From: Nemertoderma westbladi | Lineage: Eukaryota > Animalia > Xenacoelomorpha | Length of the DNA stretch: 64,000 bases | Reading direction: 5' to 3' | Assembly (NCBI GenBank): GCA_032718475.1 | Contig: JAUCBJ010008732.1 | Coordinates: 1-64,000 of the forward strand | Shown here: piece by piece, positions 4,875 to 64,000 of the stretch | Numbering within the stretch: position 1 is the first letter of the stretch | How the letters are laid out: each line of letters starts with the position of its first letter | Translations under genes and position numbers: made by a program | Notes under the pieces: generated by a model | Seen by the model: the letters and a program-made list of their open reading frames with translations, nothing else | Told to the model about the DNA's origin: nothing | Database searches by the model: none

Positions 4875-4984
4875 GTTTATGTATACAGTTGAATGTCTAC
4901 TGCTGTATCACAGTCTGAGCAAGTCTAGTAACTCAGTATTAACTGCTAGCCTAGTAATTAATTACCGGTACTGCTACTCAGTGT

Positions 4985-25136: not shown

Positions 25137-26612
25137 GTTTAGCTATACAGTTGAATGTCTACTACTATAGTTTCAGTTAAAGCAAGTCTGGTAATTCAGT
25201 ATGACCGCAAGCCTAGCGATTTATTACCGGTACCGTTACTCGGTGTAACGTGATATATATACAATATATTAGAATACCGGTATGCTTATAGTATATATAA
25301 GTATTATTACAGACTAGATTTGTCACAGAGTACCGGTATATAATTTTAGCACAAATATATATAATATATAATAGGCCTATGGTGAATACCGGTATACAGC
25401 TGACACTTATAGTATATATAAGTATAATTATGAACTAGAATTAATTACAGAATACCGGTATGATTTCAGCTCAAATTTATAGAAATAAATATAATAAGCC
25501 TATGGTAAGTACCGGTATGTCAATTATTTTTTAGAATAATTGAATTTCTGAATATTTTAGGGTTACTTGGTTACTTTAACTTACTTTATTACCGTTATTT
25601 AAGCAGTAGTCCAACTGATATTGAGACCTAGTTGTTGTAAGGCAGGCCTACTATTTATAAATCGTTTGAGTTGATTTATAATAGATATATACCCGTTTAA
25701 AAAGGGGTTTTGTCAATATTTGAAATAAATGTTATTATTTCTGGGGGAGTCACTACACAGAAGCTGTGCGCTCTCAGTGAAGTGTTACTTATTGAGACAC
25801 TAAAACAGATAATTCTAATTTACCTAAGTTACTTAATACTACAAATTACTTACGATACGGGTGAGATTAATTCTCTAATTAAAAACACAACAAAATATTA
25901 CGTACGAAATTTTAGGGTAATTTTACAGGGAAACTACAAACCAGCCTAACAAAGGGTTAGATTTCTGGTTATTACAACGGACAGGGTACTACGGTATTTG
26001 AAATAATAAGTAGTAGTAAATATATTGCACTGTCCAGATAGGAAAATACCACCGCCTGACGACCTATAACCGTTTCGCTATAGGTACTACGTTATGTATC
26101 ACGGAGTGTTCCTACCTAGAAGTTAATAGAGCTAACGAATGTGCCTATCAACCACTTTACAACACAAATATACTGCCTACACACTAATTACTCTCGGAAG
26201 CACTGTACACTAAACCCTAAATTAGGTACAAGTACTGGTACAACAAATAATCAGTAGTTAAATATACTTGAACAGTTAAAAGAACCACGGCATCTGCTGG
26301 AGTGACCAGAGCACAAAGTCACCAGTCTTGTCCTACGCCAAGCAGCCCGTGTAGTACCGGGGTTAATTTAACTATAACGGTATGTATAACAAGCACAATT
26401 ACTGTAGGGATAAACTTGGGGACATGAATGTTGCGAATAATCGCATAAACTCTGAATAATAAATATTACGCTACCCGTACAGAATACTCAAACAAAAATA
26501 CAAACCAAACGCTGGCAGACTACTATCAAGCCTAAACAAACTACAGTATGTGCAGATTCTGAAACTGTTAGTTAGTATGCGTTCTAACACGGTAGTACGA
26601 CTTATTCTTTAA

Positions 26613-32371: not shown

Positions 32372-34116
32372 GATCGCCTCAATGGTTGGAAAGCCCACTT
32401 TGAAAAGCTCCTCAATAATGACAGGGTATTGCCAGTTAATTTACTTAATTAACTTAATGACAGTTAAATGATAACTTTATAGAAGTAAAAGTGTCTGAGT
32501 CTGTACTCCCAGATATTCCCATTGGCGATATCTCCTTTGCAGAAGTGAAGACTGCTGCAAAGAGCATTAAGACCAATCGTGCCAGTGGAGTAGATGGTGT
32601 TCCCCCTGAGGTCTTTAAAATACCTGAGTGTTTAAAACTCATCTATCCCATCATAGTAGACATGTACCGAACAACAAGAGTCCCACAAGAAATGAAAACA
32701 AATAAGTTGGTGTCTGTTCCCAAGAACGGCAACCTAACACTCTATGGTTCTTTTCGGGGAATCTCATTGATCTCGATTGCTGCAAAGCTATACAATAGGA
32801 TTCTATTAAATCGCATCAGGGATCCCATTGAGAGACTGCTCCATGGAAATCAGAATGGGTTCCGTAAAGGTCGTGGGACCATGGAGCCCATTTTGGCACT
32901 TAGAAGGATAATTGAAGAGTTATCAAAAAAGAAAGACAGGCATCTGGCTGTTATCTTTGTTGACTTCTTCAAGGCCTTTGATTCAGTCTCTCGCTCACGT
33001 ATGTTCAGCATACTTTCATTATATGGGATTCCTGATGAAATTATTGCAGCAATCAGATCAGTATACGATGGATCGACAACATTTGTGTCTACTGTTGATG
33101 GTGACACAGAACCATTTGAAGTGTTATGGGGCGTCCTCCAAGGAGACACACTTGCACCATTCTTGTTCATGATTGTGGTTGACTATGTTCTACGCATGTC
33201 CTTAGATCATTATAATGATGATGGGGTGATGATAACTCCACCTACTGGCTCCAGAAGTCGAGGAAATCCTGCCAAGTACCTAACTGATCTAGACTTTGCT
33301 GATGACTTAGGAGTACTCTCAGAATCATTAGAGGGAGCCCAACGGCTCCTCAGCTCATTAGAACATGCTGCTTCTAGTGTTGGTCTTTTTATTAACTCCA
33401 GAAAGACCAAAATTCTGACAGTTAACTTTGAAAGTCCTTAGCAAGTCTCTGATCGGATGAGCATAAGCTCAAAGGATGGTATGCTTGAGCATGTGGACGA
33501 CTTCTGTCACCTGGGATCATGGATCCGTAAGTCAGGTGAGGACCTTCGAATACGTAAGGGAAAGGCATGGGCAGCCTTAAATAGGCTTTCCAGGATTTGG
33601 AAGTCACCGAGAATTAATCGGAAACTTAAGGTCCGATTATTTAGAGCAGCAGTAGTTCCAGTACTCCTCTACGGGAGTCCATGCTGGGCTCTAACTGCTG
33701 AGGACACCAAATCTCTGGATGGCACATTCACAAGAATGCTACGCCGGGTTCATTGTGTCAAGTATAATGCACACATCTCCAACCAGACACTATATAACAT
33801 TGGAGGTGTCTCATTGGTTCCCCCAAGCTTGACACTAGAACAAAATCGCCTCCGCTTTGCAGGACATTGCTTTCGCCATGAGGACCAGCCAGTGCATAAT
33901 CTTGTACTTTGGCATCCTCGTGGAGTGAATAAGCATGGTGGACAGCCCATGACTTTCTTGAGACGCATCTTAAAGGACACTGGCCTTAAAGATGCGGATG
34001 ATCTAGCAAATGTCATGGGTGATAGGGAGTTGTGGCGGTGCAATTTTGTTGACAAGCCGGCACAGCATTCTTAAAAATGCAGCTGCAATGCAGCATGCCG
34101 ATCCTAGTAGTAGTAG
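32372..34116 (+). mobile_element. 5'-truncated RTE-clade LINE inserted in BEL-3 gag
   Basis: 12-bp TSD tgtagagagaga (32360-32371 and 34117-34128) and a (TAG)n tail. Removing it restores gag LLVER|DEPAF. Confidence 0.92.
32491..34074 (+). pseudogene. RTE reverse transcriptase with one in-frame stop (33439-33441)
   Basis: QNGFRKGR, FVDFFKAFDSV, GVLQGDTLAPFLF, DLDFADD, then FCHLGS, VLLYGS and RLRFAGHCFR. Confidence 0.92.
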
Positions 34117-35641
34117 TGTAGAGAGAGATGAACCTGCGTTTATGACTGTCAAACAGGTGAGTAAACCATTACAAGTTAAACCTGAGACATGCTGCGCAAA
34201 CCCAGTCATTTATAAACCTACAGTAGCGCTTAACTCTGATGTTTTTACTAGACCCCTCACCCTATGTTTATCGAGACCTACGACTACGTGGAAGGCTTGC
34301 GAGACTACCGAACAACGAAGGACGATGGATGTGGGTAGTACCCACAGGATCGAACCGAGTTTAACCCGACCTATGACTTCGTGGAAGGCTTGCGAGCCTA
34401 CCGAACAATGGAGAGCCGTAGATCCCAGACCACAACGAACTCGACCAAGAGTAATATGCCGTACTGATTACAAACGAGAGGAGAGATCGATGAATCCTTA
34501 CATTGACAATCCTCCACGAGAAACACCCCTGCAGAAACCTACATCGCAACCGGCCGAGGAGATTATCACTAGACAGCTTACCGAGATATTCCGACCTGTA
34601 GCGGACCGACTGGCTCAGATCGAAGAGCGGCTCCAAGCCCCACCATCGGATCGATCACGGACCAGCGTGGAGTTGGAACAACCTCGACCACATCGACCAC
34701 CATTCAGAGAACCGGAGGCTAGACAAACTCTGAACCATCGAGAAGACGATCCCGTTAACCTTTCCTACCGACGAACAACGTGCGGACGGGAACGACTGGA
34801 CGCCGTAACCGAACAGGGACGCGGACAGTTGGACTTAGTTAACGAGATTGCTAAGTTTGCAGCCAGACACGGATTGCCGGCACAACAACCGCCAAAGTTC
34901 TCTGGCAACGCGAAGCACTGGCGTACACTGGTAGACTATGTGGAGTCCCAGATCGCTAAGTGTGCCTTCACCTCGACGGAGAAGTTTAATTACTTGCTCC
35001 AGGTTCTGTCTGGCGAGCCGAAACGACTAGCGGAGACCTTTATTGGTGTTCCGAATGCCTTCGAGTTGGCGTACGACCGCTTGTTTTCTATTTACGGCGG
35101 TAACGTAGCCATGGCTAAATCTATTATAGAAGACCTCTGTAGAGGAGGAAGCATTTTGAAACCGATCAATCTCCTACGACTCGCGGACAAAATCAAAAAC
35201 GCTATAGGGACTTTATGGTCAATCGGACAACTCGAATACGCCAATGCACCAACGGTTCTAATCAGGATAATCGGTAGACTCCATCATTGGTTACGCCGAG
35301 AATGGCGACGGATTGAGTATCAGCGTGAAGAGGCCGGCGGGCTATTAAAGCTTACCGATGTTTATCAACTGATTTCGCGAGAGGCCGTGGTCGAGACCAG
35401 ATCAAATTATACTGACCACCATATAGCGGCAGAAGGAATAGTGTTATTTAAAACGTGTCATGTAACTAAATGAATTGAAGGAACTGAAATAACCCACTGA
35501 TTTAAGGTTTTATGTTCAAATTGAATTTCTAGTTACAATAGGATATACGACAATCAATTGATAAATGTTACGTTATTAACCAACAGTATCCATTACAATC
35601 GTAAGGATTGCTCGGATACTTATTAACTAAGTTAGACATTT

Positions 35642-35986: not shown

Positions 35987-37911
35987 CTTAATTATTAATT
36001 CGGTATTACTTGGCCAGCCTGCGCCCTCCCCCTTAATTGAGAGTTTCAACTTTTCGGCACACCTGTGATTAGGGCACACCCCCAAAAAAATTTTATACTC
36101 CCAAAATTTTGTTTGAAAGATCCCTACTTTCGTTTTGAGAATGTTTTTAAAAAAATATAAATCTTAATTTTGTTAAAGAATAGCGCCCTACAATAAAAAA
36201 GTATTGTTCAAGAACATTATATTCTCTAAATTATTATATTATAATATAACTATTATATTATAAAATATTAAATATAAGTTTTCTTTATATATAGAACTAT
36301 ATATAAACTATAAACTAATAAAAATATAAATATTTTTAATTGATTATTGTTTAAAACCATGCATTACTACATATTAAAGTATTAGGTTGCACACCCAAAC
36401 TGGAACCTTGCATTTTGGTGTCTCTGAACCCTAAAATTGGGTGTAAATTATTTTTTGTGATAAACATCGTCGGTGCAGTTTAAGAATAGCCAAACCAAAT
36501 ATTTAAAAAAGTGGCCCCAAAAATGGCAGTAGCGCCAAAGGCTATTTCTCCACCAATATTTGTTTAAATTTGTCGAAATTTAGCATATTTTTCAGTCCAA
36601 TTCATCTGAACGCTTTCAATCAATTAATCAATAGAGCTCATAGACATGATGAGCGTATGACATGATGCCAACATTATAGTTATAGCATTACAATTTTTCA
36701 ATGTTACAAATTAACGTTTATTTAGCTAAAATTTGTAATGTTTGTGATAGTAATGTAATAGTATAGTAGATATAAATTTTAAATGACAAAAAAGAACAGT
36801 ACTGTAGCATAGCTAGTGTTGTTCTATTTTGCCGTTGTGGCGCGTAAACAATTGGATATATAAAGAGAAGAGTTCATGCCATCATAATATTCGTTATTTA
36901 TAATTTCGGGTTAAATTGAGTTTTGTTCAAGAGATTCATTGACAAATGTATTCTGAATAAGTATAACAAATTTCAACACAATTCAGAAACAGATATCCTT
37001 TTTCATGAAAAAAACGTCATTCTGAGATATAGGTATTTAAAGCTTAAGGCACAATTCAAAATTCCCGCTATTTTATTTTAGATAAGTATACCATTTTTTT
37101 TGTTCAACAATAACTTTTTCAAAAATGAATGAAATTCAACGAAATTTTTCATCATTGCTAAAAATATATCGAATAAAACAACCATTTAGCAAATTTATTC
37201 ATAACATTTTAATTTGTTCTATAACATTAAACATAAATTACCGGCTTTCAAATTTTTTTTTTATTTCATCTAGAGCAGATTTTTATCAAGATTCCAAATA
37301 CGTAAACCGGTTAGCAAGATCTATTTTACATCTTGAGATATGGCTGTCTGTCGGTTTTACTGTCGGTCTGCCATTCAGTATGTCTCCAAAACAATAGAAA
37401 ATATACTATCTGTCTAAAAAATTTCCTTTAAAAATGGGTTTTTTACCTTGAAAAGTACGAAGCAAATTTTCTACTCGAATCTTTCCACGTAATCAGCCAT
37501 GCTGATTCCAAAAAAAAACAGGTAACAACTTCTGAAAATAAACCATAACAAAGGAGTAGCATTTTAAGTCAAAGGTGTAAATTTTGGCTCTGGTCGAGAA
37601 GGGCGTCAAAAATAAATTTTTTTAATATTACAATTCAATATAGTAAACCCAAAATGTATCTTACACTTTTTTCCTACTTATTAGCCTTTTGGTGCAGTAT
37701 GCATTTCAAAATGTTGACTTCCAAGACAGTTTTTATTCCAAGGTTGATATTTTTATGTTATTAATTGAAATTGGTCTATATTATATGTAGTACACTGTGT
37801 TACCATCCTATGTTTAGTCACAACTTTTATCAACAAATCATTGTATTCTAGAACATTTAGCTAATTTGCTAGCTATTATTTTAAAACTAAATGAATTCGG
37901 TGCTAGTAAAA

Positions 37912-40900
37912 TTCTCCTCCCCACTAGTTCCGTACTCCTCCCCACTAGTTCCGTACTCCTCCCCACTAGTTCCGTTCTCCTCCCCACTAGTTCCGTACTC
38001 CTCCCCACTAGTTCCGTACTCCTCCCCACTAGTTCCGTACTCCTCCCCACTAGTTCCGTACTCCTCCCCACTAGTTCCGTACTCCTCCCCACTAGTTTCG
38101 TGCTCCTCTCCACTGGAAGCGGCTCCTCCCCACTAGTTCCGTACTCCTCCCCTCTAGTTCCGTACTCCTCCCCACTAGTTCCGTACTCCTCCCCACTGGT
38201 TCCGTACTCCTCCCCACTGGTTCCGTACTCCTCCCCACTAGTTCCGTACTCCTCCCCTCTAGTTCCGTACTCATCCCCACTAGTTCCGTACTCCTCCCCA
38301 CTAGTTCCGTACTCTCCACCCCACTAGTTCCGTACTCTTCCCCACTAGTTCCGTACTCCTCCCCACTAGTTCCGTACTCCTCCCCTCTAGTTCCGTACTC
38401 CTCCCCACTAGTTCCGTTCTCCTCCCCACTAGTTCCGTACTCCTCCCCACTAGTTCCATTCTCCTCCCCACCAGTTCCGTACTCCTCCCCACCAGTTCCG
38501 TACTCCTCCCCACTAGTTCCGTACTCCTCCCCACTAGTTCCGTACTCCTCCCCACTAGTTCCGTACTCCTCCCCACTAGTTCCGTGCTCCTCTCCACTGG
38601 AAGCGGCTCCTCCCCACTAGTTCCGTACTCCTCCCCTCTAGTTCCGTACTCCTCCCCACTAGTTCCGTACTCCTCCCCACTATGTTCCGTACTCCTCCCC
38701 ACTAGTTCCGTACTCCTCCCCACTAGTTCCGTACTCCTCCCTTCTAGTTCCGTACTCCTCCCCACTAGTTCCGTACTCCTCCCCACTAGTTCCGTACTCC
38801 TCCCCACTAGTTCCGTACTCCTCCCCACTAGTTTCGTGCTCCTCTCCACTGGAAGCGGCTCCTCCCCACTAGTTCCGTACTCCTCCCCTCTAGTTCCGTA
38901 CTCCTCCCCACTAGTTCCGTACTCCTCCCCACTTGTTCCGTACTCCTCCCCACTGGTTCCGTACTCCTCCCCACTAGATTCGTGCTCCTCTCCACTGGAA
39001 GCGGCTCCTCCCCACTAGTTCCGTACTCCTCCCCACTAGTTCCGTACTCCTCCCCACTTGTTCCGTACTCCTCCCCACTAGTTCCGTACTCCTCCCCTCT
39101 AGTTCCGTACTCCTCCCCACTAGTTCCGTACTCCTCCCCACTAGTTCCGTACTCCTCCCACTAGTTCCGGACTCCTCCCCACTAGTTCCGTACTCCTCCC
39201 CACTAGTTCCGTACTCCTCCCCTACTAGTTCCGTACTCCTCCCCACTAGTTCCGTACTCCTCCCCACTAGTTCCGTACTCCTCCCCACTAGTTCCGTACT
39301 CCCTCCCCACTAGTTCCGTACTCCTCCCCACTAGTTCCGTACTCCTCCCCACTAGTTCCGTACTCCTCCCCACTAGTTCCGTACTCCTCCCCACTAGTTC
39401 CGTACTCCTCCCACTAGTTCCGTACTCCTCCCCACTAGTTCCGTACTCCTCCCCACTAGTTCCGTACTCCTCCCCACTAGTTCCGTACTCCTCCCCACTA
39501 GTTCCGTACTCTCTCCCCACTAGTTCCGTACTCCTCCCTCACTAGTTCCGTACTCCTCCCCACTAGTTCCGTACTCCTCCCCACTAGTTCCGTACTCCTC
39601 CCCACTAGTTCCGTACTCCTCCCCACTAGTTCCGTACTCCTCCCCACTAGTTCCGTACTCCTCCCCACTAGTTCCGTACTCCTCCCCACTAGTTCCGTAC
39701 TCCTCCCCTCTAGTTCCGTACTCCTCCCCACTAGTTCCGTACTCCTCCCCACTAGTTCCGTACTCCTCCCCACTAGTTCCGTACTCCTCCCCACTAGTTC
39801 CGTACTCCTCCCCACTAGTTCCGTACTCCTCCCTTCTAGTTCCGTACTCCTCCCCACTAGTTCCGTACTCCTCCCCACTATTTCCGTACTCCTCCCTACT
39901 AGTTCCGTACTCCTCCCCGCTAGTTTCGTACTCCTCCCCACTAGTTCCGTACTCCTCCCCACTAGTTCCGTACTCCTCCCCACTAGTTCCGTACTCCTCC
40001 CCACTATTTCCGTACTCCTCCCCACTATTTCTGTACTCCTCCCCACTAGTTCCGTTCTCCTCCCCACTAGTTCCGTACTCCTCCCCTACTAGTTCCGTAC
40101 TCCTCCCCACTAGTTCCGTACTCCTCCCCACTAGTTCCGTACTCCTCCCCACTAGTTCCGTACTCCTCCCCACTAGTTCCGTACTCCTCCCCTCTAGTTC
40201 CGTACTCCTCCCTCACTAGTTCCGTACTCCTCCCCACTAGTTCCGTACTCCTCCCCACTAGTTCCGTACTCCTCCCCACTAGTTCCGTACTCCTCCCCAC
40301 TAGTTCCGTACTCCTCCCCACTAGTTCCGTACTCCTCCCCTCTAGTTCCGTACTCCTCCCCACTAGTTCCGTACTCCTCCCCACTAGTTCCGTACTCCTC
40401 CCCACTAGTTCCGTACTCCTCCCCACTAGTTCCGTACTCCTCCCCTCTAGTTCCGTACTCCTCCCCACTAGTTCCGTACTCCTCCCCACTAGTTTCGTGC
40501 TCCTCTCCACTGGAAGTTCCGTGCTCCTCCCCACTAGTTCCGTACTCCTCCCCTCTAGTTCCGTACTCCTCCCCACTAGTTCCGTACTCCTCCCCACTAG
40601 TTCCGTACTCCTCCCCACTAGTTCCGTACTCCCTCCCACTAGTTTCGTACTCCTCCCCACTAGTTCCGTACTCCTCCCCACTAGTTCCGTACTCCTCCCC
40701 ACTAGTTCCGTACTCCTCCCCACTAGTTCCGTACTCCTCCCCACTAGTTCCGTACTCCTCCCCACTAGTTCCGTACTCCTCCCCACTAGTTCCGTACTCC
40801 TCCCCACTAGTTCCGTACTCCTCCCCACTAGTTCCGTACTCCCCCCCACTAGTTCCGTACTCCTCCCCACTAGTTCCGTACTCCTCCCCACTAGTTCCGT

Positions 40901-43900
40901 ACTCCTCCCCTCTAGTTCCGTACTCCTCCCCACTAGTTCCGTTCTCCTCCCCACTAGTTCCGTACTCCTCCCCACTAGTTCCGTTCTCCTCCCCACTAGT
41001 TCCGTACTCCTCCCCACTAGTTCCGTACTCCTCCCCACTAGTTCCGTACTCCTCCCCACTAGTTCCGTACTCCTCCCACTAGTTCCGTACTCCTCCCCAC
41101 TAGTTCCGTACTCCTCCCCACTAGTTCCGTACTCCTCCCCACTAGTTCCGTACTCCTCCCCACTAGTTCCGTACTCCTCCCCTCTAGTTCCGTACTCCTC
41201 CCCACTAGTTCCGTACTCCTCCCCACTAGTTCCGTACTCCTCCCCACTAGTTCCGTACTCCTCCCCACTAGTTCCGTACTCCTCCCCTCTAGTTCCGTAC
41301 TCCTCCCCACTAGTTCCGTACTCCTCCCCACTAGTTCCGTACTCCTCCCCACTAGTTCCGTACTCCCTCCCACTAGTTCCGTACTCCTCCCCACTAGTTC
41401 CGTACTCCTCCCCACTAGTTTCGTGCTCCTCTCCACTGGAAGCGGCTCCTCCCCACTAGTTCCGTACTCCTCCCCACTAGTTCCGTACTCCTCCCCACTA
41501 GTTCCGTACTCCTCCCCACTAGTTCCGTACTCCTCCCCACTAGTTCCGTACTCCTCCCCACTAGTTCCGTACTCCTCCCCTCTAGTTCCGTACTCCTCCC
41601 CACTAGTTCCGTTCTCCTCCCCACTAGTTCCGTACTCCTCCCCACTAGTTCCGTACTCCTCCCCACTAGTTTCGTGCTCCTCCCCACTAGTTCCGTACTC
41701 CTCCCCACTAGTTCCGTACTCCTCCCCTCTAGTTCCGTACTCCTCCCCACTAGTTCCGTACTCCTCCCCACTAGTTCCATTCTCCTCCCCACTAGTTCCG
41801 TACTCCTCCCCACTAGTTCCGTACTCCTCCCCACTAGTTCCGTTCTCCTCCCCACTAGTTCCGTACTCCTCCCCACTAGTTCCGTACTCCTCCCCACTAG
41901 TTTCGTGCTCCTCTCCACTGGAGCGGCTCCTCCCCACTAGTTCCGTACTCCTCCCCTCTAGTTCCGTACTCCTCCCCACTAGTTCCGTACTCCTCCCCAC
42001 TAGTTCCGTACTCCTCCCCACTAGTTCCGTACTCCTCCCCACTAGTTCCGTACTCCTCCCCACTAGTTCCGTACTCCTCCCCACTAGTTCCGTACTCCTC
42101 CCCACTAGTTCCGTACTCCTCCCCACTAGTTCCGTACTCCTCCCCACTAGTTTCCGTACTCCTCTCCACTAGTTCCGTACTCCTCCCCACTAGTTCCGTA
42201 CTCCTCCCCTCTAGTTCCGTACTCCTCCCCACTAGTTCCGTACTCCTCCCCACTATGTTCCGTACTCCTCCCCACTAGTTCCGTACTCCTCCCCACTAGT
42301 TCCGTACTCCTCCCCACTAGTTCCGTACTCCTCCCCACTAGTTCCGTACTCCTCCCCACTAGTTCCGTACTCCTCCCCACTAGTTCCGTACTCCTCCCCA
42401 CTAGTTCCGTACTCCTCCCCTCTAGTTCCGTACTCCTCCCCACTAGTTCCGTACTCCTCCCCACTAGTTCCGTGCTCCTCTCCACTGAGCGGCTCCTCCC
42501 CACTAGTTCCGTACTCCTCTCCACTAGTTCCGTACTCCTCCCCTCTAGTTCCGTACTCCTCCCCACTAGTTCCGTACTCCTCCCCACTAGTTCCGTACTC
42601 CTCCCCACTTGTTCCGTACTCCTCCCCACTAGTTCCGTACTCCTCCCCACTAGTTCCGTACTCCTCCCCACTAGTTCCGTACTCCTCCCCACTAGTTCCG
42701 TACTCCTCCCCACTAGTTCCGTACTCCTCCCCACTAGTTCCGTACTCCTCCCCACTAGTTCCGTACTCCTCCCCACTAGTTCCGTACTCCTCCCCACTAG
42801 TTCCGTACTCCTCCCCACTAGTTCCGTACTCTCCACCCCACTAGTTCCGTACTCTTCCCCACTAGTTCCGTACTCCTCCCCACTAGTTCCGTACTCCTCC
42901 CCTCTAGTTCCGTACTCCTCCCCACTAGTTCCGTTCTCCTCCCCTCTAGTTCCGTACTCCTCCCCACTAGTTCCGTTCTCCTCCCCACTAGTTCCGTACT
43001 CCTCCCCACTAGTTCCGTTCTCCTCCCCTCTAGTTCCGTACTCCTCCCCACTAGTTCCGTACTCCCTCCCACTAGTTCCGTACTCCTCCCCACTAGTTCC
43101 GTACTCCTCCCCACTAGTTTCGTGCTCCTCTCCACTGGAAGCGGCTCCTCCCCACTAGTTCCGTACTCCTCCCCTCTAGTTCCGTACTCCTCCCCACTAG
43201 TTCCGTACTCCTCCCCACTGGTTCCGTACTCCTCCCCACTGGTTCCGTACTCCTCCCCACTAGTTCCGTTCTCCTCCCCTCTAGTTCCGTACTCCTCCCC
43301 ACTAGTTCCGTTCTCCTCCCCACTAGTTCCGTACTCCTCCCCACTAGTTCCGTACTCCTCCCCACTAGTTCCGTTCTCCTCCCCACTAGTTCCGTTCTCC
43401 TCCCCACTAGTTCCGTACTCCTCCCCTCTAGTTCCGTACTCCTCCCCACTAGTTCCGTACTCCTCCCCACTTGTTCCGTACTCCTCCCCACTGGTTCCGT
43501 ACTCCTCCCCACTAGTTCCGTACTCCTCCCCTCTAGTTCCGTACTCATCCCCACTAGTTCCGTACTCCTCCCCACTAGTTCCGTACTCCTCCCCACTAGT
43601 TCCGTACTCCTCCCCACTAGTTTCGTGCTCCTCTCCACTGGAAGCGGCTCCTCCCCACTAGTTCCGTACTCCTCCCCTCTAGTTCCGTACTCCTCCCCAC
43701 TAGTTCCGTACTCCTCCCCACTTGTTCCGTACTCCTCCCCACTGGTTCCGTACTCCTCCCCACTAGTTCCGTACTCCTCCCCTCTAGTTCCGTACTCATC
43801 CCCACTAGTTCCGTACTCCTCCCCACTAGTTTCGTGCTCCTCTCCACTGGAAGCGGCTCCTCCCCACTAGTTCCGTACTCCTCCCCTCTAGTTCCGTACT

Positions 43901-45398
43901 CCTCCCCACTAGTTCCGTACTCCTCCCCACTAGTTCCGTACTCCTCCCCACTTGTTCCGTACTCCCTCCCACTAGTTTCGTACTCCTCCCCACTAGTTCC
44001 GTACTCCTCCCCACTAGTTCCGTACTCCTCCCCACTAGTTCCGTACTCCTCCCCACTAGTTCCGTACTCCTCCCCACTAGTTCCGTACTCCTCCCCACCA
44101 GTTCCGTACTCCTCCCCACTAGTTCCGTACTCCTCCCCACTAGTTCCGTACTCTCCACCCCACTAGTTCCGTACTCTCCACCCCACTAGTTCCGTACTCT
44201 TCCCCACTAGTTCCGTACTCCTCCCCACTAGTTCCGTACTCCTCCCCTCTAGTTCCGTACTCCTCCCCACTAGTTCCGTTCTCCTCCCCTCTAGTTCCGT
44301 ACTCCTCCCCACTAGTTCCGTTCTCCTCCCCACTAGTTCCGTACTCCTCCCCACTAGTTCCGTTCTCCTCCCCTCTAGTTCCGTACTCCTCCCCACTAGT
44401 TCCGTACTCCCTCCCACTAGTTCCGTACTCCTCCCCACTAGTTCCGTACCCCTCCCCACTAGTTTCGTGCTCCTCTCCACTGGAAGCGGCTCCTCCCCAC
44501 TAGTTCCGTACTCCTCCCCTCTAGTTCCGTACTCCTCCCCACTAGTTCCGTACTCCTCCCCACTGGTTCCGTACTCCTCCCCACTGGTTCCGTACTCCTC
44601 CCCACTAGTTCCGTACTCCTCCCCTCTAGTTCCGTACTCATCCCCACTAGTTCCGTTCTCCTCCCCTCTAGTTCCGTACTCCTCCCCACTAGTTCCGTAC
44701 TCCCTCCCACTAGTTCCGTACTCCTCCCCACTAGTTCCGTACTCCTCCCCACTAGTTTCGTGCTCCTCTCCACTGGAAGCGGCTCCTCCCCACTAGTTCC
44801 GTACTCTTCCCCACTAGTTCCGTACTCCTCCCCACTAGTTCCGTACTCCTCCCCACTAATTCCGTACTCCTCCCCACTAGTTCCGTACTCCTCCCCACTA
44901 GTTCCGTTCTCCTCCCCTCTAGTAACGTACTCCTCCCCACTAGTTCCGTTCTCCTCCCCACTAGTTCCGTACTCCTCCCCACTAGTTCCGTACTCCTCCC
45001 CACTAGTTTCGTGCTCCTCTCCACTGGAAGCGGACTCCTCCCCACTAGTTCCGTACTCCTCCCCTCTAGTTCCGTACTCCTCCCCACTAGTTCCGTACTC
45101 CTCCCCACTAGTTCCGTACTCCCCCCCACTAGTTCCGTACTCCTCCCCACTAGTTCCGTACTCCTCCCCACTAGTTACGTTCTCCTCCCCACTAGTTCCG
45201 TTCTCCTCCCCACTAGTTCCGTACTCTCCCCACTAGTTCCGTACTCCCCCCCTCTAGTTCAGTACTCCTCCACACTAGTTCCGTACCCCTCCCCACTAGT
45301 TCCGGACTCCTCCCCACTAGTTCCGTACTCTTCCCCACGAGTTCCGTACTCCTCTCCACTAGAACCGGACTCCTCCCCACCAGTTCCATACTCTTCCC
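37912..45398. repeat. 21-bp satellite (gttccgtactcctccccacta)n, ~7.5 kb, roughly 350 units
   Basis: Continuous array with recurrent variants (gtttcgtgctcctctccactg followed by the 20-bp gaagcggctcctccccacta) and a degenerate right edge. Confidence 0.97.
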
Positions 45399-45524
45399 TG
45401 CAGTTTTCCCCTGTAATTTAATAGGTTTTGTATGTTTTAAAATTGATTATATAGTACAGGCCACCAGAAAAAGCAGATTTCTTCCAATGTGATCACATGT
45501 GAACACATTTATTCAAGTCATCTG

Positions 45525-45760: not shown

Positions 45761-46369
45761 AGACCATTGAATAATTAATTTAGTGCAGGGAGATGTCGCA
45801 CCATTAGTTTGACACCGTGAGGGAACAGAGAAACACCAGAAGATGCCTTAACATCACTAACTATAGGCCTGCCAACTAGACACTATTAACCGCACACTAT
45901 AAAGGTAAACAAAATCCTTATCGCATTTCCAGCTGCAGTGAGTGACAGTTCGCGGCAAACTACAGAGAGTTTCCAGATTACTAAGCGTTTCAAAAGTATG
46001 CAATTGTATCCTTTGGCGAAAAAATTTTGGTTATTGCCAATTCAATTATGTTCAATTGTCCCGTTCAACAACATTACATTACACTGGTACACATTTGATA
46101 AAATGTGTTCACAATTGTACAAATCTGCGTTTTCTGGTGGTCAGTACTGTAGTTCTGAAACATTACTAGCTATTAATTTTTAAGGTAACTAGTGGTTTAT
46201 GTAGCCAGTATTTTTTTATAATAATTGTGTGAAAAAGGCGACACTAATTGAATTAAGCTAACATAAAAAGCAATATCTACTAATGCTGGTTAAGAATAAT
46301 CAATAAGAAAATAAATGAAAATCATGATCTGTAAATAAATGAGGGGGGGGGGGGGGGGTCTAGTAATAC

Positions 46370-47089
46370 CTTATGCTTTAATTCAATCTCTAGATCACAT
46401 TCCCATTGTGCTGTTATGAAATGTAGGGACTTCAATCCAACCCAGTAGTTTCCTAGTCCATTGCCGCCCCAAAACAAACCAGCTTCATATTTCTTCCAAC
46501 CTTTATTGAAATTAAAATACATATATGGATGTTGGGTTCGTTCTTGTATCAAAATAGAATCATCTTCGCATATCACTGGTTCGTCTAAAGATTCAAAAAC
46601 TCGTTCCTCGCGATCCGTAATACCGGCACATGGGAATGCTACCTTGGCAATTGTGGTGGGTGGGGGTGTTGAAGATATTCCGTTCTTATCAGTGATTTCT
46701 TCTATAGAGACAGTGGTGGTAATGGTAGGGTCGGGCGGTTCGGGTGGTTCGGTGGTAGATGTTATAGAACGATTACCAATATTTGAGTTGATCGGAGTTC
46801 CAGAATTCTTAACCTTATTTCCACCGGATTTATCGCTGTGGTACAAAACGAAGCCCGTTATTACTAGAGACAATAAAATAAACCCGACGACCACATTTAG
46901 AACCATACGTATGTTTTCACGTCGTTCGTATTCTTCTGTTTTCGTTTCCCCGGTCATAGAATTTATACTTCTTCTTCTTTCGCGTCTCATCTCTTCAATA
47001 GGAATTCTCCCCACTGATGTTGTTTCCGAGAATTGCGACCGCGCTGACAAGTATTCAGACACTCCAGAACGTCGTGTTGAATTGGCCAT
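46370..47089 (-). CDS. First coding exon of a type II transmembrane fibrinogen-domain protein (FIBCD1-like topology)
   Basis: Cytoplasmic N-terminus, TM segment VLNVVVGFILLSLVITGFVLY, Thr/Pro-rich stalk, then the FReD N-half (PVICEDD..LIQER..FNKGWKKYEAG..NYWVGLKSLHFIT..LEIEL). Donor AAG|GTATTA at 46370/46369. Confidence 0.85.
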
Positions 47090-47432
47090 AACTGCGGCTG
47101 TGTATTACTTTGTATGATTTGGGAGTCGATTTTAAAAGATTTGTTTACTACTTGTTTTTTTATGGTTACTATTTGTTTACTACTTAGCTACTTAAACTAA
47201 TGGAGGCAAATAGAGATAAACTGTGGCGAAAGGCGATTGGCTGTGAATTTTCAATTTATTCGGTTTTTCTACAATATTCCTAATTCACGTCTCATGTTTA
47301 GGTCCCCTCTACCTCTCTCAGTAACCCGTTATTTTAACGTCCAACCAAAATAATTTTTTAACAAAATCCAAGCGAAAAACAGTAGAAAACAATAACAGGA
47401 AAATATTGCGTCGTGTGCCATTCGCAGCGCAT

Positions 47433-55821: not shown

Positions 55822-56374
55822 TGTGACGGGATCCAAGAAGGATCCCGGTTTATCCGGTTTGTCAATTCACGCGTCCCCGCCTTGTGTGGAAGATAAAAGA
55901 GTTTACGATGTTCGTTGTATATAATGTTCGGGATATGTATAGTATAGATATAGATAATGGATAAGATAAATATTGTTGTACGCGGAAGGCGGGAAACTGT
56001 AATTGAAATCCCGGTACTTCCCTAGCTAAACTATTGCTACTGTAACACCAATAACACTGAGATAACTGAATGAGATGATTACTGCCAACTGGTTATATTG
56101 CACGGGTTGGCCTTGTTACTGTACCTAACCGATGCCTTTCCCCCTGATTGGCTAATATCCCTGTTGGCACCCTTTGCCCCCCTCTGAAGTGCTTCCCTTC
56201 GCCCTTGCTATTCTCTCTCTGTCAGGGGTATGGCCCCTGACCCCTATTGTGTGTTTCTCCTTCCCACTTTGTTGGGGTGACACGAGGTTGATATTGGTAA
56301 TCAACCTCGTGCTCCCAATATCGCTTAACGGTTGACTTTATGGGTTTGTGTTAGCGGAATTGGATAAGCTAACA
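55822..56374 (-). repeat. Putative 3' LTR of BEL-4 (553 bp)
   Basis: Sense TGTTAG...GTCACA, preceded by the PPT GGGGGGGAG (56375-56383) and ending exactly where the RTE coding sequence breaks. The second LTR is not in the window. Confidence 0.75.
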
Positions 56375-57075
56375 CTCCCCCCCATGCTATCTTCCCGGTG
56401 AGAAGATAGCATCCACCTCAAGTGCGCTACAATTCCGCTGGATCCCGATCTATTATCGGGTGTGGGGTGGATCTATTTTCTTTCGGAGCCGGCTTTCCAG
56501 GCCGCTCCCTATGGGTATGATATCGCTACCCGTTTTGCCTGGCGTCCCATGTCGGGCCGATCGTGCGCTCCTCACACGACTTTTGTTTCCCCAACACTTC
56601 GCCACTTTAACTCTACTCTGTTCTCACCCTGACTCTCCTCTACTTCTCCTCACTACCGCTCTAACTCTCGGACTTCCCTGTCCCTCACTCAGCCTCTTAT
56701 TCCTCCCACACACTTGAATTGCATTCGCACTCTCTCTGCACTCTGCACTATCACCTCTACTCGACCTCCCTTTGACTACCCCATCCCTTCTGACGAATCT
56801 CACTCCCCCTTTGTGCCGTCGCACTCAAGAAATGTGAAGTCGTCTGGTGTCTCGTCCATAGTACCATAGTCAGTTAGCCCCCCAGTCCCAGTAGCTAATT
56901 GAGAAAGGTTGAATGACTATAGTACTTACTTCGAACGTATATTTCATTGCTAAACTACTGATTACTACGTACGTACATATAATTGCACTTATTTAATTAT
57001 TTGCATCAGTTTGAATTTGTACTTAATAGTTCGTACGTCCCACGTGGCGCCTTCCAGGCGTACCACATTGAAGTC

Positions 57076-59641
57076 TCAGTTCATCCCCCCTGACTTTGGG
57101 AACCACCTCAAGTCTTTCCCTTTGCCGTCCTCCTCCCTGGGTCGTTTCCTGGTCACTACCGCTCCTCTGGGATCCGCTTTCTGTCTTCGGACCCTCGCCG
57201 CCACCTCCTTACTGATCCCGGTCGTTGGCTCCCTGGGTGCTGGTGTTATCAGCTCCCGATATCGCTTCGCGGGTGGCCCCTCCAAGTGGCCCTGTTGTCT
57301 CCCCCTGGTGGCGTCCCATATGATCATCTTCATTGCCCGCGGCACGTGCTCCGCCAGGAAATCCCTAAACTCCCCTCGGTTCTGTGGCGTCCACCTGTCC
57401 AAATACCTTTGTGTATTCATCACCCCGAGCATACGACGCCGCCGTTGCTACCTCTTGATAGGTAAACGGTAGCCTCCGCTTTATGATTTCCATGTGAGCC
57501 TCCTGATTGATGAGGAAGAAACCCCACTTGAACTCCTGGGCCTTCATGCGCTGGCGCGTCATGGCCCCGACGTCGGCCCACTCCTCGAATCTTCTGAACT
57601 TCTCTTCGTCGTCCATCCAGTCGCACTGGCGTCCGTAGTGTCCCCGAAAGTTGCACTTCGGACATCGGTTATGCAACCGTGGACACGCCCCCATCCTGTG
57701 GCTCGACTCGCGGCAGTAGAGACAAAAGGTTCCCTTTTGGAACCGGTACAAACAGCTCCTTTCCTGGTGGGTCTGTCTCCCACAGTAGTCGCAACCGAGT
57801 ACCAATGTCTCCCGCCCCACGTCGTCTTTCGTCCCAAGCGATCTCCGCGGTCTGTGGAGTCGCTGGTAGGCGAACTTCTGCACGTTAGTGTCCCTGTCTA
57901 CGTCGATCTCTCCGCCCCTCTCGGGCATCGTCTCCCCGAATACTACCCGTGGTGCCGTCCCCGGTTGCTCGCCCAACCTGATAGTGCTCCCCGCGAAATC
58001 CATCGCCGGCTCCTCGTGCACCCAGGCCCGCTTGCCGGGTCTATCCCAGAAGGCCCTCGCCCCACTGGCCGTCACCACCCTCCCGCCAACCCAGTCCGTG
58101 TCCGAGTGGCCAATCCTCTCGATGGGCGGCACCCCTCCGAACTCGTCGTCGTCTTCCTCCTCCTCTGGCAGTGGCTCCAACCCCGGTATCCCGATGGATC
58201 CACTATGTCCCTTCCCGCCTTGGCTCTCGCCCGTAGCTCTCCATCCCTCTAGCTCCCTTAACTTCCTTGGCGGTTGGTCGCCTTCGGCGCCCGCTGGTAT
58301 GGGCATCGCTTGCAACCCCGACGTCGACTGTTTCGGCGATCCCACCGTCCATCCCAATTCTCGCCCTAGAGACTCCCCCGAACTCCCTGATGAAGTCCAA
58401 CGAAGTTCGTCTAAGCCTGCCTGTTCCTCGAAGCCGTAACTCTGCGTCCTGGCCTCCTCCTCCCTCTCCTCTGCTTCTATCCTCTCCCGTCTAGCGACTT
58501 CCTCCAGTCGCTTTGCCTCTCGTCTATCCGCCTCTAGCTGCTCCCATCTCTGATACGGCGTATCTGTCTCCCCGTCTATCAGATGTCGGCTGTTGTAGTA
58601 CACCGACTCGCCCTTCAGCCCCGGGTGGTCTACCAGACCGTCGAAGGCCGTCTTAAAGGCTCTCCTGTAGCTTAGGGGTGATCCCGATAACAGAAATGCC
58701 GCTGGTTCCCTCTCGATAACCACGGTCATGAATAAGTTAAGCAAACTTATCATCATCCAATCTTCCTGCAGGATATATCGCTTCTGATATACCTTTATCG
58801 CTCCTCTGCGGAATTGATATACCTCTTGCCTTCCCGGTCTCGCTCCCCACTTTAGCGAGTTCGCTAGTTCTGCTCCGTATTCCTCCCTGAACTTCCCCCA
58901 GTCCATCGGTTTGTGGCATACGAGCCCCAATAGCTGGCCCATTGCCACCGCCCCGCATTGGCCTGTGTTCCCGACTACCCCCAACCCATCTGGTGCCGTC
59001 ATAGCCATGAAGACCTTCTGCATATCCAGGAGGTTGGTGGCGTCCGGACCGATGATTCTCTCCGCGTCCTCGCGAATCGCCGATCCCTCCTTCGTCGTCG
59101 ACTTCTCTCTTACCAAGACTTGCACCGCTTTCGGCAACCGGTTTAATTTCGGCCCGTCCTTCTTCCCATACGTTCCTAGATCGAATAAGAAAATGTCCCC
59201 ATTTGGCGCGGCCAAATGTAGGAGTATGGTCCTGGCCGACCCCGCTGATCCTCGTCTCGAACCCTCATCGTCTTCCACGGTTCCCTCGTCGTCTAGGATC
59301 ATATATCCTCCCCTGTTGACGGACTCTATGAATCTCTTCACATCCTTCTTCGGCGACTCCCTCGGGTACTTCGGAATCCCGAACTTCGCCTAGTCCCCTT
59401 TCACCACGTAGTGGAAGTGTTGGAAGATCGCGTTGTCCAGCGACGGCGTCCCGTAGGTCCCGACCAGCCGCTGTTCGTGCATCTCCCGGAAGTGGTCCTG
59501 CAGCACTCGTGCCGCGTGACCCTTTTCCAACCTCTCGTAGTACCCTCTCGTCTTCTCTTCCGGATGCCTCTTGGTGAAATCCACCAGTATCTCCTTTCCT
59601 CCTGACTCCGCCTTTCTCTTTCTGATCAGTTTTCCCGCCAT
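57076..59641 (-). pseudogene. BEL-4 extra ORF (~850 aa reconstructed): DEDDy 3'-5' exonuclease-like domain, acidic linker and triple zinc knuckle
   Basis: ORFs 59390-59686 and 57365-59341 are in frame, separated by one TAG. ORF 57076-57432 continues after a probable frameshift at ~57435. Motifs: YMILDDEG, LLHLAAPNGDIFLFDL, KEGSAIREDAERI, QKRYILQED; CDYC..H..C, CLYC..H..CP, CPKCNFRGH..C. Confidence 0.8.
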
Positions 59642-60117
59642 TTCGAACTCCTCCGATCGCTCACCTATAAGGTGGTGCCTTACCAAGGCGCAATATAAAT
59701 GAGTGATGCAGTTAGGATGGTCTGTACGGTCCGATAATGGCCTATTTTCTATCTAACTACGCCCTTTTTAGCCTAATTTCTGTTACTTAATTTTGTAGCT
59801 AACAAATGTACCTTATTTGCAATTTCTGTCCGTTGCTTTAATTATGTTCCAGAATAATTTCCCTCCTGTTACCATAATTTGTAATTTTCTTAGCCCTATT
59901 TTATTCTATTTTTTATTTCTAATCTATTTCTACTATTTACTGTTTATGGATTATTCTATTTCATAATCCACATTCTGACCTACACTGTGGGCCTGTGCAG
60001 TACAGCAGTATATGTCGCGTGGCCTACACGATCTATCCAACTGTACTCATATGCCCCCCTCTCGCTACTAACTACTAACTAATATCTATACTATGTATAC
60101 CCTTCTACCTCTCTCTC

Positions 60118-60460
60118 TTACTAATCGGTACTACGTACCCTCTTACTACTCTCTAACTAACTAACAGTACTACGTACCCTCTAACTCTTACTCTAACTAT
60201 ACTAACGGTACTACGTACCCTCTTACTACTCTCTAACTCCACTAACTATCGGTACTACGTACCCTCTAACTCTCTAACTCCACTAACTATCAGTACTACG
60301 TACCTTCTAGCTGACTAACTAACTAACTAACTAACTCTAGGTACTACGTGCCTTCTAACTGACTAACTAACTAACTAACTAACTCTAGGTACTACGTACC
60401 TTCTAACCGACTAACTCTAGGTACTACGTACCTTCTAACTAACTCCTAACTAACTAACTC
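60118..60460. repeat. Tandem gtactacgtacc + (ctaa)n units (8 copies) in the spacer between pol and the extra ORF
   Basis: Units of about 30-50 bp seen directly. Confidence 0.85.
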
Positions 60461-60571
60461 TAATTTTTATTTATTTTATTTTTTATTTTTATGTGTGGGA
60501 AGGGCGCCTCGCCCTCAATCCCACCCCCCTCAGTCCAAACTTGGACGACTAAACTACAATCTAACACCACC

Positions 60572-63195
60572 CTAAGGTGCCCCTTCTAATAGACAGCATT
60601 TCCCTACAGCTCTCCTGTAGGTTTTTCTGTCTTTCGCACCGATCTTTCCACCTATCCGCACTTCTACCGATCGGACTCTTCCGTCCTCATCGGAGTAAGT
60701 GCCTACGACTCTCGCCAACCGCCACTGGTTGTTGATGATAGTATCATCCGTGACGATTACGAGATCTCCCTCTCTTAACTCCCTATTTGACTTCCTCCAC
60801 TTGCTTCTTTTGTGAAGCGTGGGTAGGTATTCCTCAACCCACCTCCTCCAATACTCTGCGCTTATTGCTTTAGCGACCTTCCAACTCTGGCGGGAATGTA
60901 TGTCATCTGGGTCTACACCCCGCATATCGATGGTCGCTGGCCTTTCCATTAGAAAATGGCTGGGTGTCAGCACATCTAATGACTCAGGGTCATCATTCTC
61001 CGGATATAGCGGTCTGCTATTAATGATCCCCTCGCACTTCGCAAGCACTGTCCTTAAGACGTCCTCAGTGACCATGTGGGTGTTCATTAGCTTCGTCATT
61101 AGACGCTTTGAACTGCCCACCAGTCTCTCGACGCATCCTAGTGTATGTGGTGCATACGGCGTCCTTCTCTCCCACTTTACTTGTCGTCGTCTCATGGCCG
61201 CCCTGACTTCCTCCCCTTCCAAGATGTCCAAGGCCTCTGCCATCTCGTTCTCTGCTCCCACAAAGTTGGTTCCGCTGTCGGAATACATTACTGCGATCGT
61301 CCCACCTTTGCAGTCTCTGAATCTTTCTAATGCATTAATAAATGCTGATGCGGTTGCATCTTGGGCGAGTTCTATCCCTACCGCCCGCGTGTTGTTACAT
61401 ACGAAGATAATACCGTAGCGTTTCTCCGTGTGCCGCATCACCTTGATCTTTATCGGCCCGAACATGTCCACACCGCAATGTGTAAATGGCGGGTCGTGCT
61501 GTCTTACTCTACTCGCCGGTAGTGGCGCCATCTCTTGTATGGCTCGCTCCTTCTTCGCTCGTCGGCAGGTCTGGCACTGCCCCACTACCGCTTTTACCTT
61601 CTTCCTCAACTGCTTGACCCAAAAGGTCCTCCTTATCTCCGTGAGAGTTCGGTTTGTGCCCCCGTGCAATATCGACTTGTGGGAGTCCCAGATAATCTGG
61701 TGGACTATTGGTAATCCTGTGGCAATGATGATGGGTTTCGGTGGTACGACTATGCTGTTGTTGTATCCCACCCTAGAATTCATTACTAGAATCCCGTCGT
61801 CATTAAGTTGTGGCGACAGCGCGATCAGCTCGCTGTCCCGTCGAAGGTGCTGTTGGTTACCGACGCGTTCCACCTCGTCGCCATAGTTCTTCCGTTGTTC
61901 ATAGCGGATGACTGCCTTGGCCGCTCCTTCCAGATCTATGGTTGTCCTGATCTTCTTGTCTTTGCCAACTCCCGCGAGGAAATTCCCGAAGGCTCTCCAG
62001 TACGCCACTAATTTCTTGGTCTTATACCAACTAGAGCTGTAGCTGAGGAGTTTATCTGTCGGGTTATCGCACAGTTCTTCTGTCTTAGGTTGCACGTCCC
62101 TTATCTCCCTCACCATCTGGGAGTATATCTCTTCTCCCTCTGAATCTCCCTCTTCTCCTTCTGACACTACCTCTCCTGAGTCCGGGTCCACCTTTCTCAT
62201 CGGCGGCCAGGCCTCCTTGTCGCTCAGAAACTGCGGCCCGTGTTGCCACAATCCTTCCTTTTTTAAGAAAGTGTGGCGTGCCACGCCCCGTGATAACAAG
62301 TCCGCTGGATTCTCGTCCGTTGGGCAGTAGTGCCACCTTTCCAATTCTGTGGTCGCCCTTATCTCGTCCACCCTGTTAGCGACGAATATAGGGTATCTCG
62401 TCCTTTCGTTATGTAGCCAACCAAGCACTACCATGGAGTCCGTCCAGTAGTGTGTCTCCACTATGTTGGGAATAGTATCCACTAGGTAGGCTGTGGCTCT
62501 AACTCCTAGTCTCGCAGCTGTCAATTCTAATTTGGGAACTGATGCTGAATCTGGCGGCGTTGACTTTGCTTTGCTAAAGGCCAGTCTGGGCTTGTGAGCC
62601 CCCTCTCGTTGTACTAAATAGAGTGCCGCTCCGTACGCCTCCAACGACACATCGGAGAACATGTGTAGGTCCAGATTCGTCATGTTCCCATCCGGGAAAT
62701 ACACTCGTGGCATGTTGTATGTTCCCATCTTCTCCAAGTCTCCTGTCCACTTACTCCACTGTCTCTTGATTTCCTCTGGTACCTCTACGTCCCACTCATC
62801 CTTCAATTTGTATACTCTCTTGAGTATCTGTTTCCCGGTGACTAATAATGGGGATGCTAGACCTAGGGGATCGTATATCCTTGCTATATACGATACATAG
62901 CCCCTCTTCGTGTGGATGTCTGCGCCCTCCTGGCTCAGCTGATACTTCAGCTCATCTGTCTCTCTGTTCCACACGATTCCCAATGCCTTCTGTTGAGATT
63001 CTGTTCTCTTGTTCGCCATGTCCTGCCCTTTGGCTGTTGTGGGATTATCCATGGTCGATTCTGGTCTCTTGTCCTCTATCGCCTTGATAAATTCCTCCGA
63101 ACTGGATTGGAATTTGGTCAGGTTAAAGCCGGATCCTTTTAGGATGTCGCGAACCTCGCGCCCTGTGTCCAGTATCTCCTTAACCGTAACTGACG
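60572..63195 (-). CDS. BEL-4 pol C-terminal part: end of RT, RNase H, integrase
   Basis: GFNLTKFQSS, KALGIVW, IYDPLG, HMFSDVSLEAYGA, PKLELTAA, WTDS, NPADLLSRG, HHCC zinc finger, GVDMFGP, SDSGTNFVG, VERLVG, INSRPL and a DUF5641-like end. Confidence 0.92.
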
Positions 63196-64000
63196 GTAAC
63201 CGATCTGACCGACCGATCGTCGACCGGTAACTCCACGGCCCATCCTTTCTCGACGTACTTCTTAATCGTTCTGTGGATGTACTCATTCTTCTCGCGGCTC
63301 CGTTTTAGTGTTTGTTTCAGCTTGCGGAGTCTCGTGAGTACCATCCCTCTATTATCGGGCAGTGGTAACTTCGGTAGTTTCCATACCATTCCTATGGTGT
63401 ACCGCCCCTCGTCGCACTTCATAGACTCCTCTACGCTCTGCTGAGCCTGTTTGTCTTCCACCGAGGTCCCGACCCCGGTTTCCTTTAATCCTTCAAAATC
63501 CTGTCTGAGCAGTCTTTTAAGTTGCTCCTCTGCTCTCTCATCACTCATTTCCTGCATAGTTCCCGCGAACATGCATCCTGATGTCTCCGACATCCTAAAT
63601 GGTATCTTGCTCTTGATTGGGCCACTTAGCGTCCACCCGAATGGTGTCAGTATTGCCACCGGGTCAGACTGCTTGTCTTCGCCGAAGACCGTTTGCATTC
63701 TTTCGTGGGCCGTTGGGCAGTCCATTCCTACTATGATGGATACCTTCCTAACGTCCACATCTGGGATTGAGAAGTCAATATCGTCCAGAAATTTATATTG
63801 TTCGACCTCGATGTTGGTTGGCCGTCTGGCATTGATGTTTATTGACTCTATCACTTGGATGGGGTCGATGCTCGCCCCATAGTCGCATCCTGGTGCTATT
63901 GCTGCAATGGTGCACCGTCCGGTTCTCATCTCCAGGACCTCATCTTTGCTGGAGATGGTTGTTACCGCCATTCTACTTGGCCTCGTTCTCAATCCTATTT
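63180..64000 (-). CDS. BEL-4 pol: protease C-terminal part and RT N-terminus, broken by the RT-core deletion
   Basis: VSIIVGMD, PVAILTPFGWTLSGP, SVEDKQA, GRYTIGMVWK, LPDNR and YVEKGWAVEL. Confidence 0.88.
   Translation of the reverse strand, partial: IGLRTRPSRMAVTTISSKDEVLEMRTGRCTIAAIAPGCDYGASIDPIQVIESININARRPTNIEVEQYKFLDDIDFSIPDVDVRKVSIIVGMDCPTAHERMQTVFGEDKQSDPVAILTPFGWTLSGPIKSKIPFRMSETSGCMFAGTMQEMSDERAEEQLKRLLRQDFEGLKETGVGTSVEDKQAQQSVEESMKCDEGRYTIGMVWKLPKLPLPDNRGMVLTRLRKLKQTLKRSREKNEYIHRTIKKYVEKGWAVELPVDDRSVRSVTVSYG

Follow-up and report, generated by a model that had tools for sequence, protein, structure and literature searches.

The window analysed here, a stretch of 64,000 nucleotides from Nemertoderma westbladi (contig JAUCBJ010008732.1, assembly GCA_032718475.1), has a long open reading frame (ORF2) between a BEL/Pao-type pol gene and a candidate polypurine tract, where an envelope gene might be expected. 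BEL/Pao elements are described from animals. An earlier note on this DNA, made from the sequence alone, read ORF2 as an element-borne gene for a DEDDy 3'-5' exonuclease with zinc knuckles. The locus raises the question of whether ORF2 has this fold, whether it belongs to the element, and what its protein may do.

A decayed BEL/Pao element and its second open reading frame

The upstream open reading frame is a BEL/Pao pol with Pfam matches to Peptidase_A17 (E 7e-39), DUF5641 and Integrase_H2C2, in agreement with the assignment in the earlier note. On the minus strand, the protease-RT linker and the start of RT lie at 63180..64000 (identified as an ORF and by tblastn to residues 1156-1330 of an intact relative, L046), and the end of RT, RNase H, integrase and DUF5641 lie at 60572..63304 (Pfam). 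The element extends beyond the edge of the window, with gag and the 5' LTR outside. The Pao-type order protease-RT-RNase H-integrase is complete in the relatives, whereas about 180 residues of the RT core are absent from the window copy near 63300-63200 (a tblastn gap corresponding to L046 residues 1330-1512), where contigs of sister copies diverge; without this part of RT the window copy is dead. Between pol and ORF2 is a non-coding spacer of 930 nt (59642..60571, minus strand) with in-frame stops and a tandem-repeat block (about 60057-60462). On the other side of ORF2, sequence inspection revealed a candidate polypurine tract followed by TG (56803..56812, minus strand) and a probable 3' LTR (55822..56802, minus strand, its start approximate with an alternative at 56576) ending in CA at 55822. 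Beyond the junction 55821/55822, copies of the flanking repeat elsewhere have a different sequence, and the element was probably inserted into an unrelated high-copy repeat, with its 3' end at 55822. What remains in the window is a BEL/Pao retrotransposon in a state of decay.

ORF2 is on the minus strand (59641-57076, about 850 residues in total) and, as the earlier note stated, is interrupted by one stop and one frame break. From the ATG at 59641, 83 codons (59390..59641) run to an in-frame TAG (59392-59390) that is not common to the sister copies. The main frame extends to 57365 and overlaps a second, basic frame of 123 residues (57076..57447, minus strand), the probable C-terminal tail after the frame break. 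Between these ends lie a domain with a DEDDy/EXD2-like 3'-5' exonuclease fold (58640..59389, assigned from profiles and a predicted model), a long helix that leads into an acidic/Gly-rich linker (57800..58639, residues 323-530 being predicted as disordered with pLDDT <50), and three CCHC knuckles with a helical module (57440..57799), all on the minus strand. The translation contains every motif that had been reported, in the order YMILDDEG, LLHLAAPNGDIFLFDL...LPKAVQVLVREKSTTKEG, SAIREDAERI and QKRYILQED, together with the acidic/Gly-rich linker and the three knuckles. The highest mean hydropathy over 19 residues was 1.35, indicating no TM-like segment, and this value and the DEDDy fold described below exclude an env identity, as had been argued.

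ORF2 is covered by sister-copy contigs in the same way as pol in four DNA runs (at most three samples), depth here not being equivalent to copy number. At the ORF2 stop, more than 99% of the sister-contig depth reads otherwise (three runs), and an indel in the two-frame overlap was found in part of the sister contigs. The 38 variants inside ORF2 among those listed (the best 40 of 114) consist of 27 polymorphic among sister copies, 22 of them at third codon positions, and 11 private to the window copy, 8 of them at codon positions 1 or 2. The third-position bias in the sisters and its absence from the private changes indicate that the family is under selection while the window copy is decaying.

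The window contains several other features. Two related BEL gag-pro copies with Ala/Glu-rich repeats (1-4907 and 20409-25142, minus strand) are 82-92% similar over the stretches compared, and a further fragment of BEL gag lies at 34007-35473 (plus strand). We also observed a non-LTR-like RT (RVT_1; 32461-34074, plus strand), a fibrinogen-C-like ORF (E 4e-5; 46322-47104, minus strand) and a tandem array (37767-45400) that repeats a 21-bp unit more than 330 times over about 7.5 kb, with a strong strand skew.

Exonuclease fold and catalytic-site states

Single-sequence methods gave little: Pfam found no exonuclease in the window ORF2 and weak exonuclease matches in only 2 of 29 family members, a PDB search with the single sequence returned nothing useful, and AlphaFold from the single sequence gave a pLDDT of 32. 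The window N-terminal domain matched a profile of 82 relatives, from which the window sequence was excluded, at E 3e-23 (Z=1e6), and family profiles in turn matched human EXD2 (6k17; E 7.9e-13 and 1.8e-13), with WRN, Egalitarian (E 0.0025) and trypanosome RNase D as weaker matches. An alignment-based AlphaFold model reached a mean pLDDT of 64 and was high in both domains (mostly 70-95 in the exonuclease domain). With this model, Foldseek retrieved RNase D, Egalitarian, Nibbler and EXD2, with Trypanosoma brucei RNase D at the top, and Exd1 and Egalitarian were also among the structural matches. In VIA, where rows within 1 Z unit count as tied, Nibbler (Z 12.3, rmsd 3.1, 179 residues aligned) was tied with bacterial NrnC/diDNase, and trypanosome RNase D (Z 11.2, rmsd 4.1, 185 aligned) and WRN (Z 11.1, rmsd 3.1, 163 aligned) also matched. 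In the Atlas, eukaryotic clusters ranked first, and a WRN-like cluster with PF01612 on 38% of its members was matched at 0.94. The model and profiles indicate that the ORF2 N-terminal domain has the RNase H-like DnaQ/DEDDy fold, so that the proposal first drawn from the motifs is borne out by profiles, Foldseek and VIA alike.

In the window domain (P0002 numbering), D33 and E35 of ExoI and D108 of ExoII align with the corresponding columns of EXD2 and WRN. In ExoIII, Y205 is present, with E at position 209 and D after it. ExoIII had been described as non-canonical, and the E is indeed there, but it is not a private oddity of this copy, since it recurs in 6 of 83 domains. At the four acidic columns of these 83 domains (<90% identity), in which some ExoII columns may be shifted, we counted DEDD in 35, DEDE in 6 (window included), DEED in 3, truncated --DD in 4 and other patterns in 35. 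The acidic set DEDD, DEDE or DEED is thus kept by 44 of the 83 over deep divergence, suggesting that catalysis matters in many lineages; judged from the residues, a DEDE site may or may not be active. Six loci (L010, L077, L079, L123, L124 and L127) keep DEDD with H in the ExoIII tyrosine column.

The seven tree elements without the ExoI D and E form one pol clade with 100/100 support. The profile of these putative pseudo-nucleases matched nothing relevant in the PDB when used alone; it matched the intact-site profile at 99.6% probability. Pseudo-nuclease pairs gave dN/dS values of 0.04-0.25. Judged from the alignments, one pol clade has lost the catalytic residues and keeps the domain under selection.

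Knuckles and C-terminal module

After the long linker, the window ORF2 has three canonical CX2CX4HX4C knuckles beside a conserved helical module ('FE..A..G..T..R...WGF'). The knuckle profile of ORF2 matched no Gag, and a duplicated Gag knuckle was rejected as the source of the module. A search of representative proteins returned 78, nearly all through the knuckles, and the N-terminal domain was common to 31 of the 35 that have at least 300 residues before the knuckles, many of these being included in the profile. In one protein (P0003), the knuckle module is present twice. The window itself has a second BEL element with a broken knuckle ORF (17338-18802, minus strand; E 2e-8), downstream of the BEL gag-pro ORF at 20409-25142; the exonuclease domain was undetectable in this ORF. 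Within the family, the knuckles seem to be what stays constant, although all loci were found by their knuckles.

Linkage to pol and selection in the relatives

A search of related loci with the window protein found no relative, and word-based protein searches returned at most 4 proteins, none with a Pfam label. A degenerate knuckle pattern identified at least 120 metagenome loci (with flanks for 80) and 12 loci in genome_contigs, and had 0 matches in viral_contigs. Since all loci were found via the knuckle motif, carriers with the exonuclease only, or non-BEL carriers, could not appear in this set. Among the matches listed, the knuckle profile matched 83 of the 92 loci with flanks, and a BEL pol was located upstream on the same strand in 31 of the 34 among these 83 with at least 5 kb of upstream sequence. 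The three exceptions are a degenerate locus (L012), a repeat-bounded locus with no pol (L022) and a probable chance match (L122). A BEL/Pao polyprotein was confirmed by Pfam in all eight loci tested. In L023, two 797-nt LTR-like repeats flank pol and ORF2, and paired LTR-like repeats with a PBS-like sequence were seen in both L023 and L013. The gene is spread more widely than the earlier note had reported and is kept by dozens of distant BEL/Pao elements.

Some loci depart from the common layout. In L022 (5187-10931), LTR-like repeats some 5.3 kb from each other enclose the exonuclease-knuckle ORF but no pol; this is possibly a non-autonomous element retaining ORF2. L051 (1-4767, minus strand) has a further ORF of 1589 residues directly after ORF2 on the same strand, with no Pfam match. 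In L124 (3542-9538, minus strand), which carries the exonuclease-knuckle gene, a dNK (deoxynucleoside kinase) domain (E 6e-46) precedes RT in the BEL/Pao polyprotein. L123, L124, L127, L128, L130 and L132 are BEL-type/ORF2 contigs inside bins labelled as bacterial MAGs, labels which probably reflect eukaryotic contamination.

For the 21 elements with a long pol and a single-ORF ORF2, patristic distances of pol were correlated with those of the exonuclease domain (Mantel rho 0.89) and of the knuckles (rho 0.79), and in each case 0 of 2000 permutations was as high. The exonuclease tree recovered 8 of the 18 pol splits and the knuckle tree 14 of the 18. The window element was a long branch in all trees, with pol identity of at most 32%. 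The dN/dS of the exonuclease domain, the check that the earlier note had called for, lay between 0.04 and 0.28 in every one of the 25 pairs with identity above 60% that 56 domains provided, the pairs being non-independent and dS mostly near 1. As far as these sequences can tell, the gene and pol co-diverge with no sign of swapping, and the exonuclease gene is under purifying selection in the BEL/Pao relatives. ORF2 was neither absent from the sister contigs nor seen with termini of its own, and a separate insertion is excluded by the fixed place after BEL pol and the congruence of the trees. These results sustain the view that ORF2 belongs to the element.

A readthrough-like junction in the relatives

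Among the matches listed, the pol stop was UGA-C in 14 of the 38 loci with both the end of pol and an exonuclease match. The frame was continuous and open for 150 codons past the pol stop in 10 of these 14 and in 2 of the 24 others (Fisher p 1e-4, kinship not corrected and the loci being phylogenetically non-independent), and 3 of the 14 were out of frame. A perfect stem of 7-11 bp, starting 8-11 nt past the stop, was found in 13 of the 14; the stems differ in sequence and yet still pair, and the elements without UGA-C mostly have 2-6 bp. UGA-C was present in 12 of 15 pseudo-nuclease elements (a list drawn up by hand), and two relatives have CAATTA directly after the pol stop. The signal at the pol stop was seen in L007, L021, L029, L031, L034, L065, L066, L068, L069, L076, L080 and others; many of these junctions also share a conserved TCGG bulge, with ORF2 in frame, and belong mostly to the pseudo-nuclease clade.

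The readthrough-like combination of UGA-C and a covarying stem is a candidate signal for programmed stop-codon readthrough, in the relatives only. We found no readthrough path from pol in the window element, which has TAG-G at the end of pol, stops in the spacer and an ATG of its own for ORF2. In its accessible text, PMC2194720 summarises the readthrough signals of Sindbis virus (UGA-C), TMV (CAR-YYA), MuLV and SIRE1 (pol/env); according to the same text, such stop contexts need not be leaky, and a similar-looking UGA context in Tca2 gave no readthrough in yeast.

Possible function of the ORF2 protein

We propose, with a probability of roughly one half, that the ORF2 protein is an accessory RNP factor that binds the RNA of the element and holds or trims the 3' ends of nucleic acids. 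In this proposal, the knuckles would hold on to the RNA of the element, and a 3' end would be captured in the DEDDy pocket, the holding or trimming likely occurring during particle assembly or reverse transcription. Catalysis would be optional: trimming would take place in DEDD and DEDE lineages, and the pseudo-nuclease clade would be limited to binding. Translation of the window ORF2 would begin at its own ATG, with a spliced or sub-genomic RNA as the probable template, whereas in the pseudo-nuclease clade a Gag-Pol-ORF2 readthrough product might carry the protein into the particle; such packaging finds no support for the window element, which has no readthrough signal. Binding is favoured over catalysis by the pseudo-nuclease clade and by the knuckle-only remnant in the second BEL element of the window, and binding in cis is favoured by the loss of catalytic residues under selection and the readthrough-like coupling to Gag-Pol. 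Against a role purely in cis, the target of the active lineages could be host RNA.

The same fold would also suit a protein that acts in trans against silencing, over-trimming or tying up host small RNAs (piRNAs or piRNA precursors) in imitation of Nibbler, Mut-7 or EXD1, a reading that we regard as possible but unlikely. Exd1 and Egalitarian are matched structurally, as is Nibbler EXO, which is one of those that tie for the best score; the family appears to have a very high copy number in DNA runs of the host, and inactive DEDD derivatives (EXD1 and Maelstrom) take part in piRNA biogenesis according to the portion of PMC5408684 available to us. However, bacterial NrnC is among the tied structural rows, the sequence profile nearest to the family is that of EXD2 rather than Nibbler, co-divergence with pol without swapping and the low dN/dS speak against it, and the readthrough-like in-frame coupling to Gag-Pol suits a role in cis better. 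An Egalitarian-like adaptor, in which a non-catalytic fold and the knuckles would tie element RNA to motors or germ-line granules, would explain why a whole clade with a degenerate catalytic domain is still under selection, and Egalitarian was matched by both profile and structure; the full acidic set, which an adaptor would not need, is intact in about half of the domains, and no Egalitarian-specific domains were found, making this reading improbable.

More improbable still is proofreading or polishing of cDNA ends for the RT by clipping mismatched or non-templated 3' bases. The DnaQ fold is common to the Pol I and WRN exonucleases, and EXD2 is reported as active on DNA and RNA (PMC6648332, in the part accessible), but the readthrough-like fusion to Pol occurs mostly in the clade without catalytic residues, the opposite of what proofreading predicts; the existence of that clade under selection weakens proofreading and favours RNA binding. 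Finally, a host gene captured by the element, or an insertion of separate origin, that is carried along as a neutral passenger might account for the broken window copy and the codon positions of its private changes, but this is scarcely credible given the fixed place after BEL pol, the tree congruence, the dN/dS far below 1 and the lack of visible termini of its own.

We give a little better than even odds to a wider reading, in which these elements would form an old, undescribed BEL/Pao branch whose own DEDDy-knuckle RNP factor has persisted across deep divergence; some lineages would have it as an active 3'-end nuclease, and another as a pseudo-nuclease joined to Gag-Pol by programmed UGA readthrough. 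On this reading, the gene would provide a conserved, non-envelope third function in a group of LTR retrotransposons, either on the RNA of the element or against piRNA trimming.

Comparison with known systems

The ICTV profile (PMC8742986) lists only gag, pol and env-like genes for BEL/Pao, and in the available text of the BEL/Pao survey PMC3118150 env-like genes are the sole extra genes, with 'exonuclease' occurring 0 times in the main text. Our literature search, in which the slash spelling weakens term matching and whose scope excludes Repbase, supplements and subscription journals, found no report of a BEL/Pao exonuclease. A large set of BEL/Pao elements thus has a conserved non-envelope gene beyond the ICTV gene list, and the candidate pol-to-last-gene readthrough signal with covarying stems is also new.

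Among host proteins, human EXD2 (6k17) is the best profile match, and its ExoI, ExoII and ExoIII columns align; from the accessible descriptions it differs as a membrane-anchored host dimer without a knuckle module, with an identity of about 13-15%. Trypanosoma brucei RNase D (7c42-7c4c), listed as CCHC-type, likewise has a DEDDy domain followed by CCHC knuckles, but it is a host enzyme of about 350 residues with no long linker, and the common layout may be convergent. Nibbler/Mut-7, EXD1 and Egalitarian share the fold and, as in the BEL ORF2 family, include active and inactive members, whereas in the host they act in small-RNA pathways or in transport and have different domains at their flanks. 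SIRE1, Sindbis virus and TMV, as far as the source excerpts describe them, resemble the BEL relatives (not the window element) in that one in-frame stop separates pol from the last ORF, and differ in that the downstream ORF of the BEL relatives encodes an exonuclease-fold protein.

The closest parallel, which the earlier note does not mention, is the DEDDy ORF3 of the bdelloid Juno/Vesta and Athena/Terminon elements, described in the accessible part of Rodriguez et al. 2017 (PMC5408684) and mentioned in sections of the reviews PMC6431247 and PMC6338049. In that description, the ORF3 of Juno/Vesta is also a DEDDy exonuclease ORF located after pol, in the env position and without TM segments. 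Juno, Vesta and Athena differ in not being BEL/Pao and in having the motif DEED, with no triple-knuckle module in the part of the paper that describes ORF3. Compared by description only, the bdelloid ORF3s are presented there as recent acquisitions, whereas the BEL gene co-diverges with pol to about 30% identity. The putatively active, inactive and knuckle-only states of the BEL family, deduced from their residues, provide a natural comparative series on retroelement DEDDy ORFs, which bears on the question left by the 2017 rotifer paper in the portion available.
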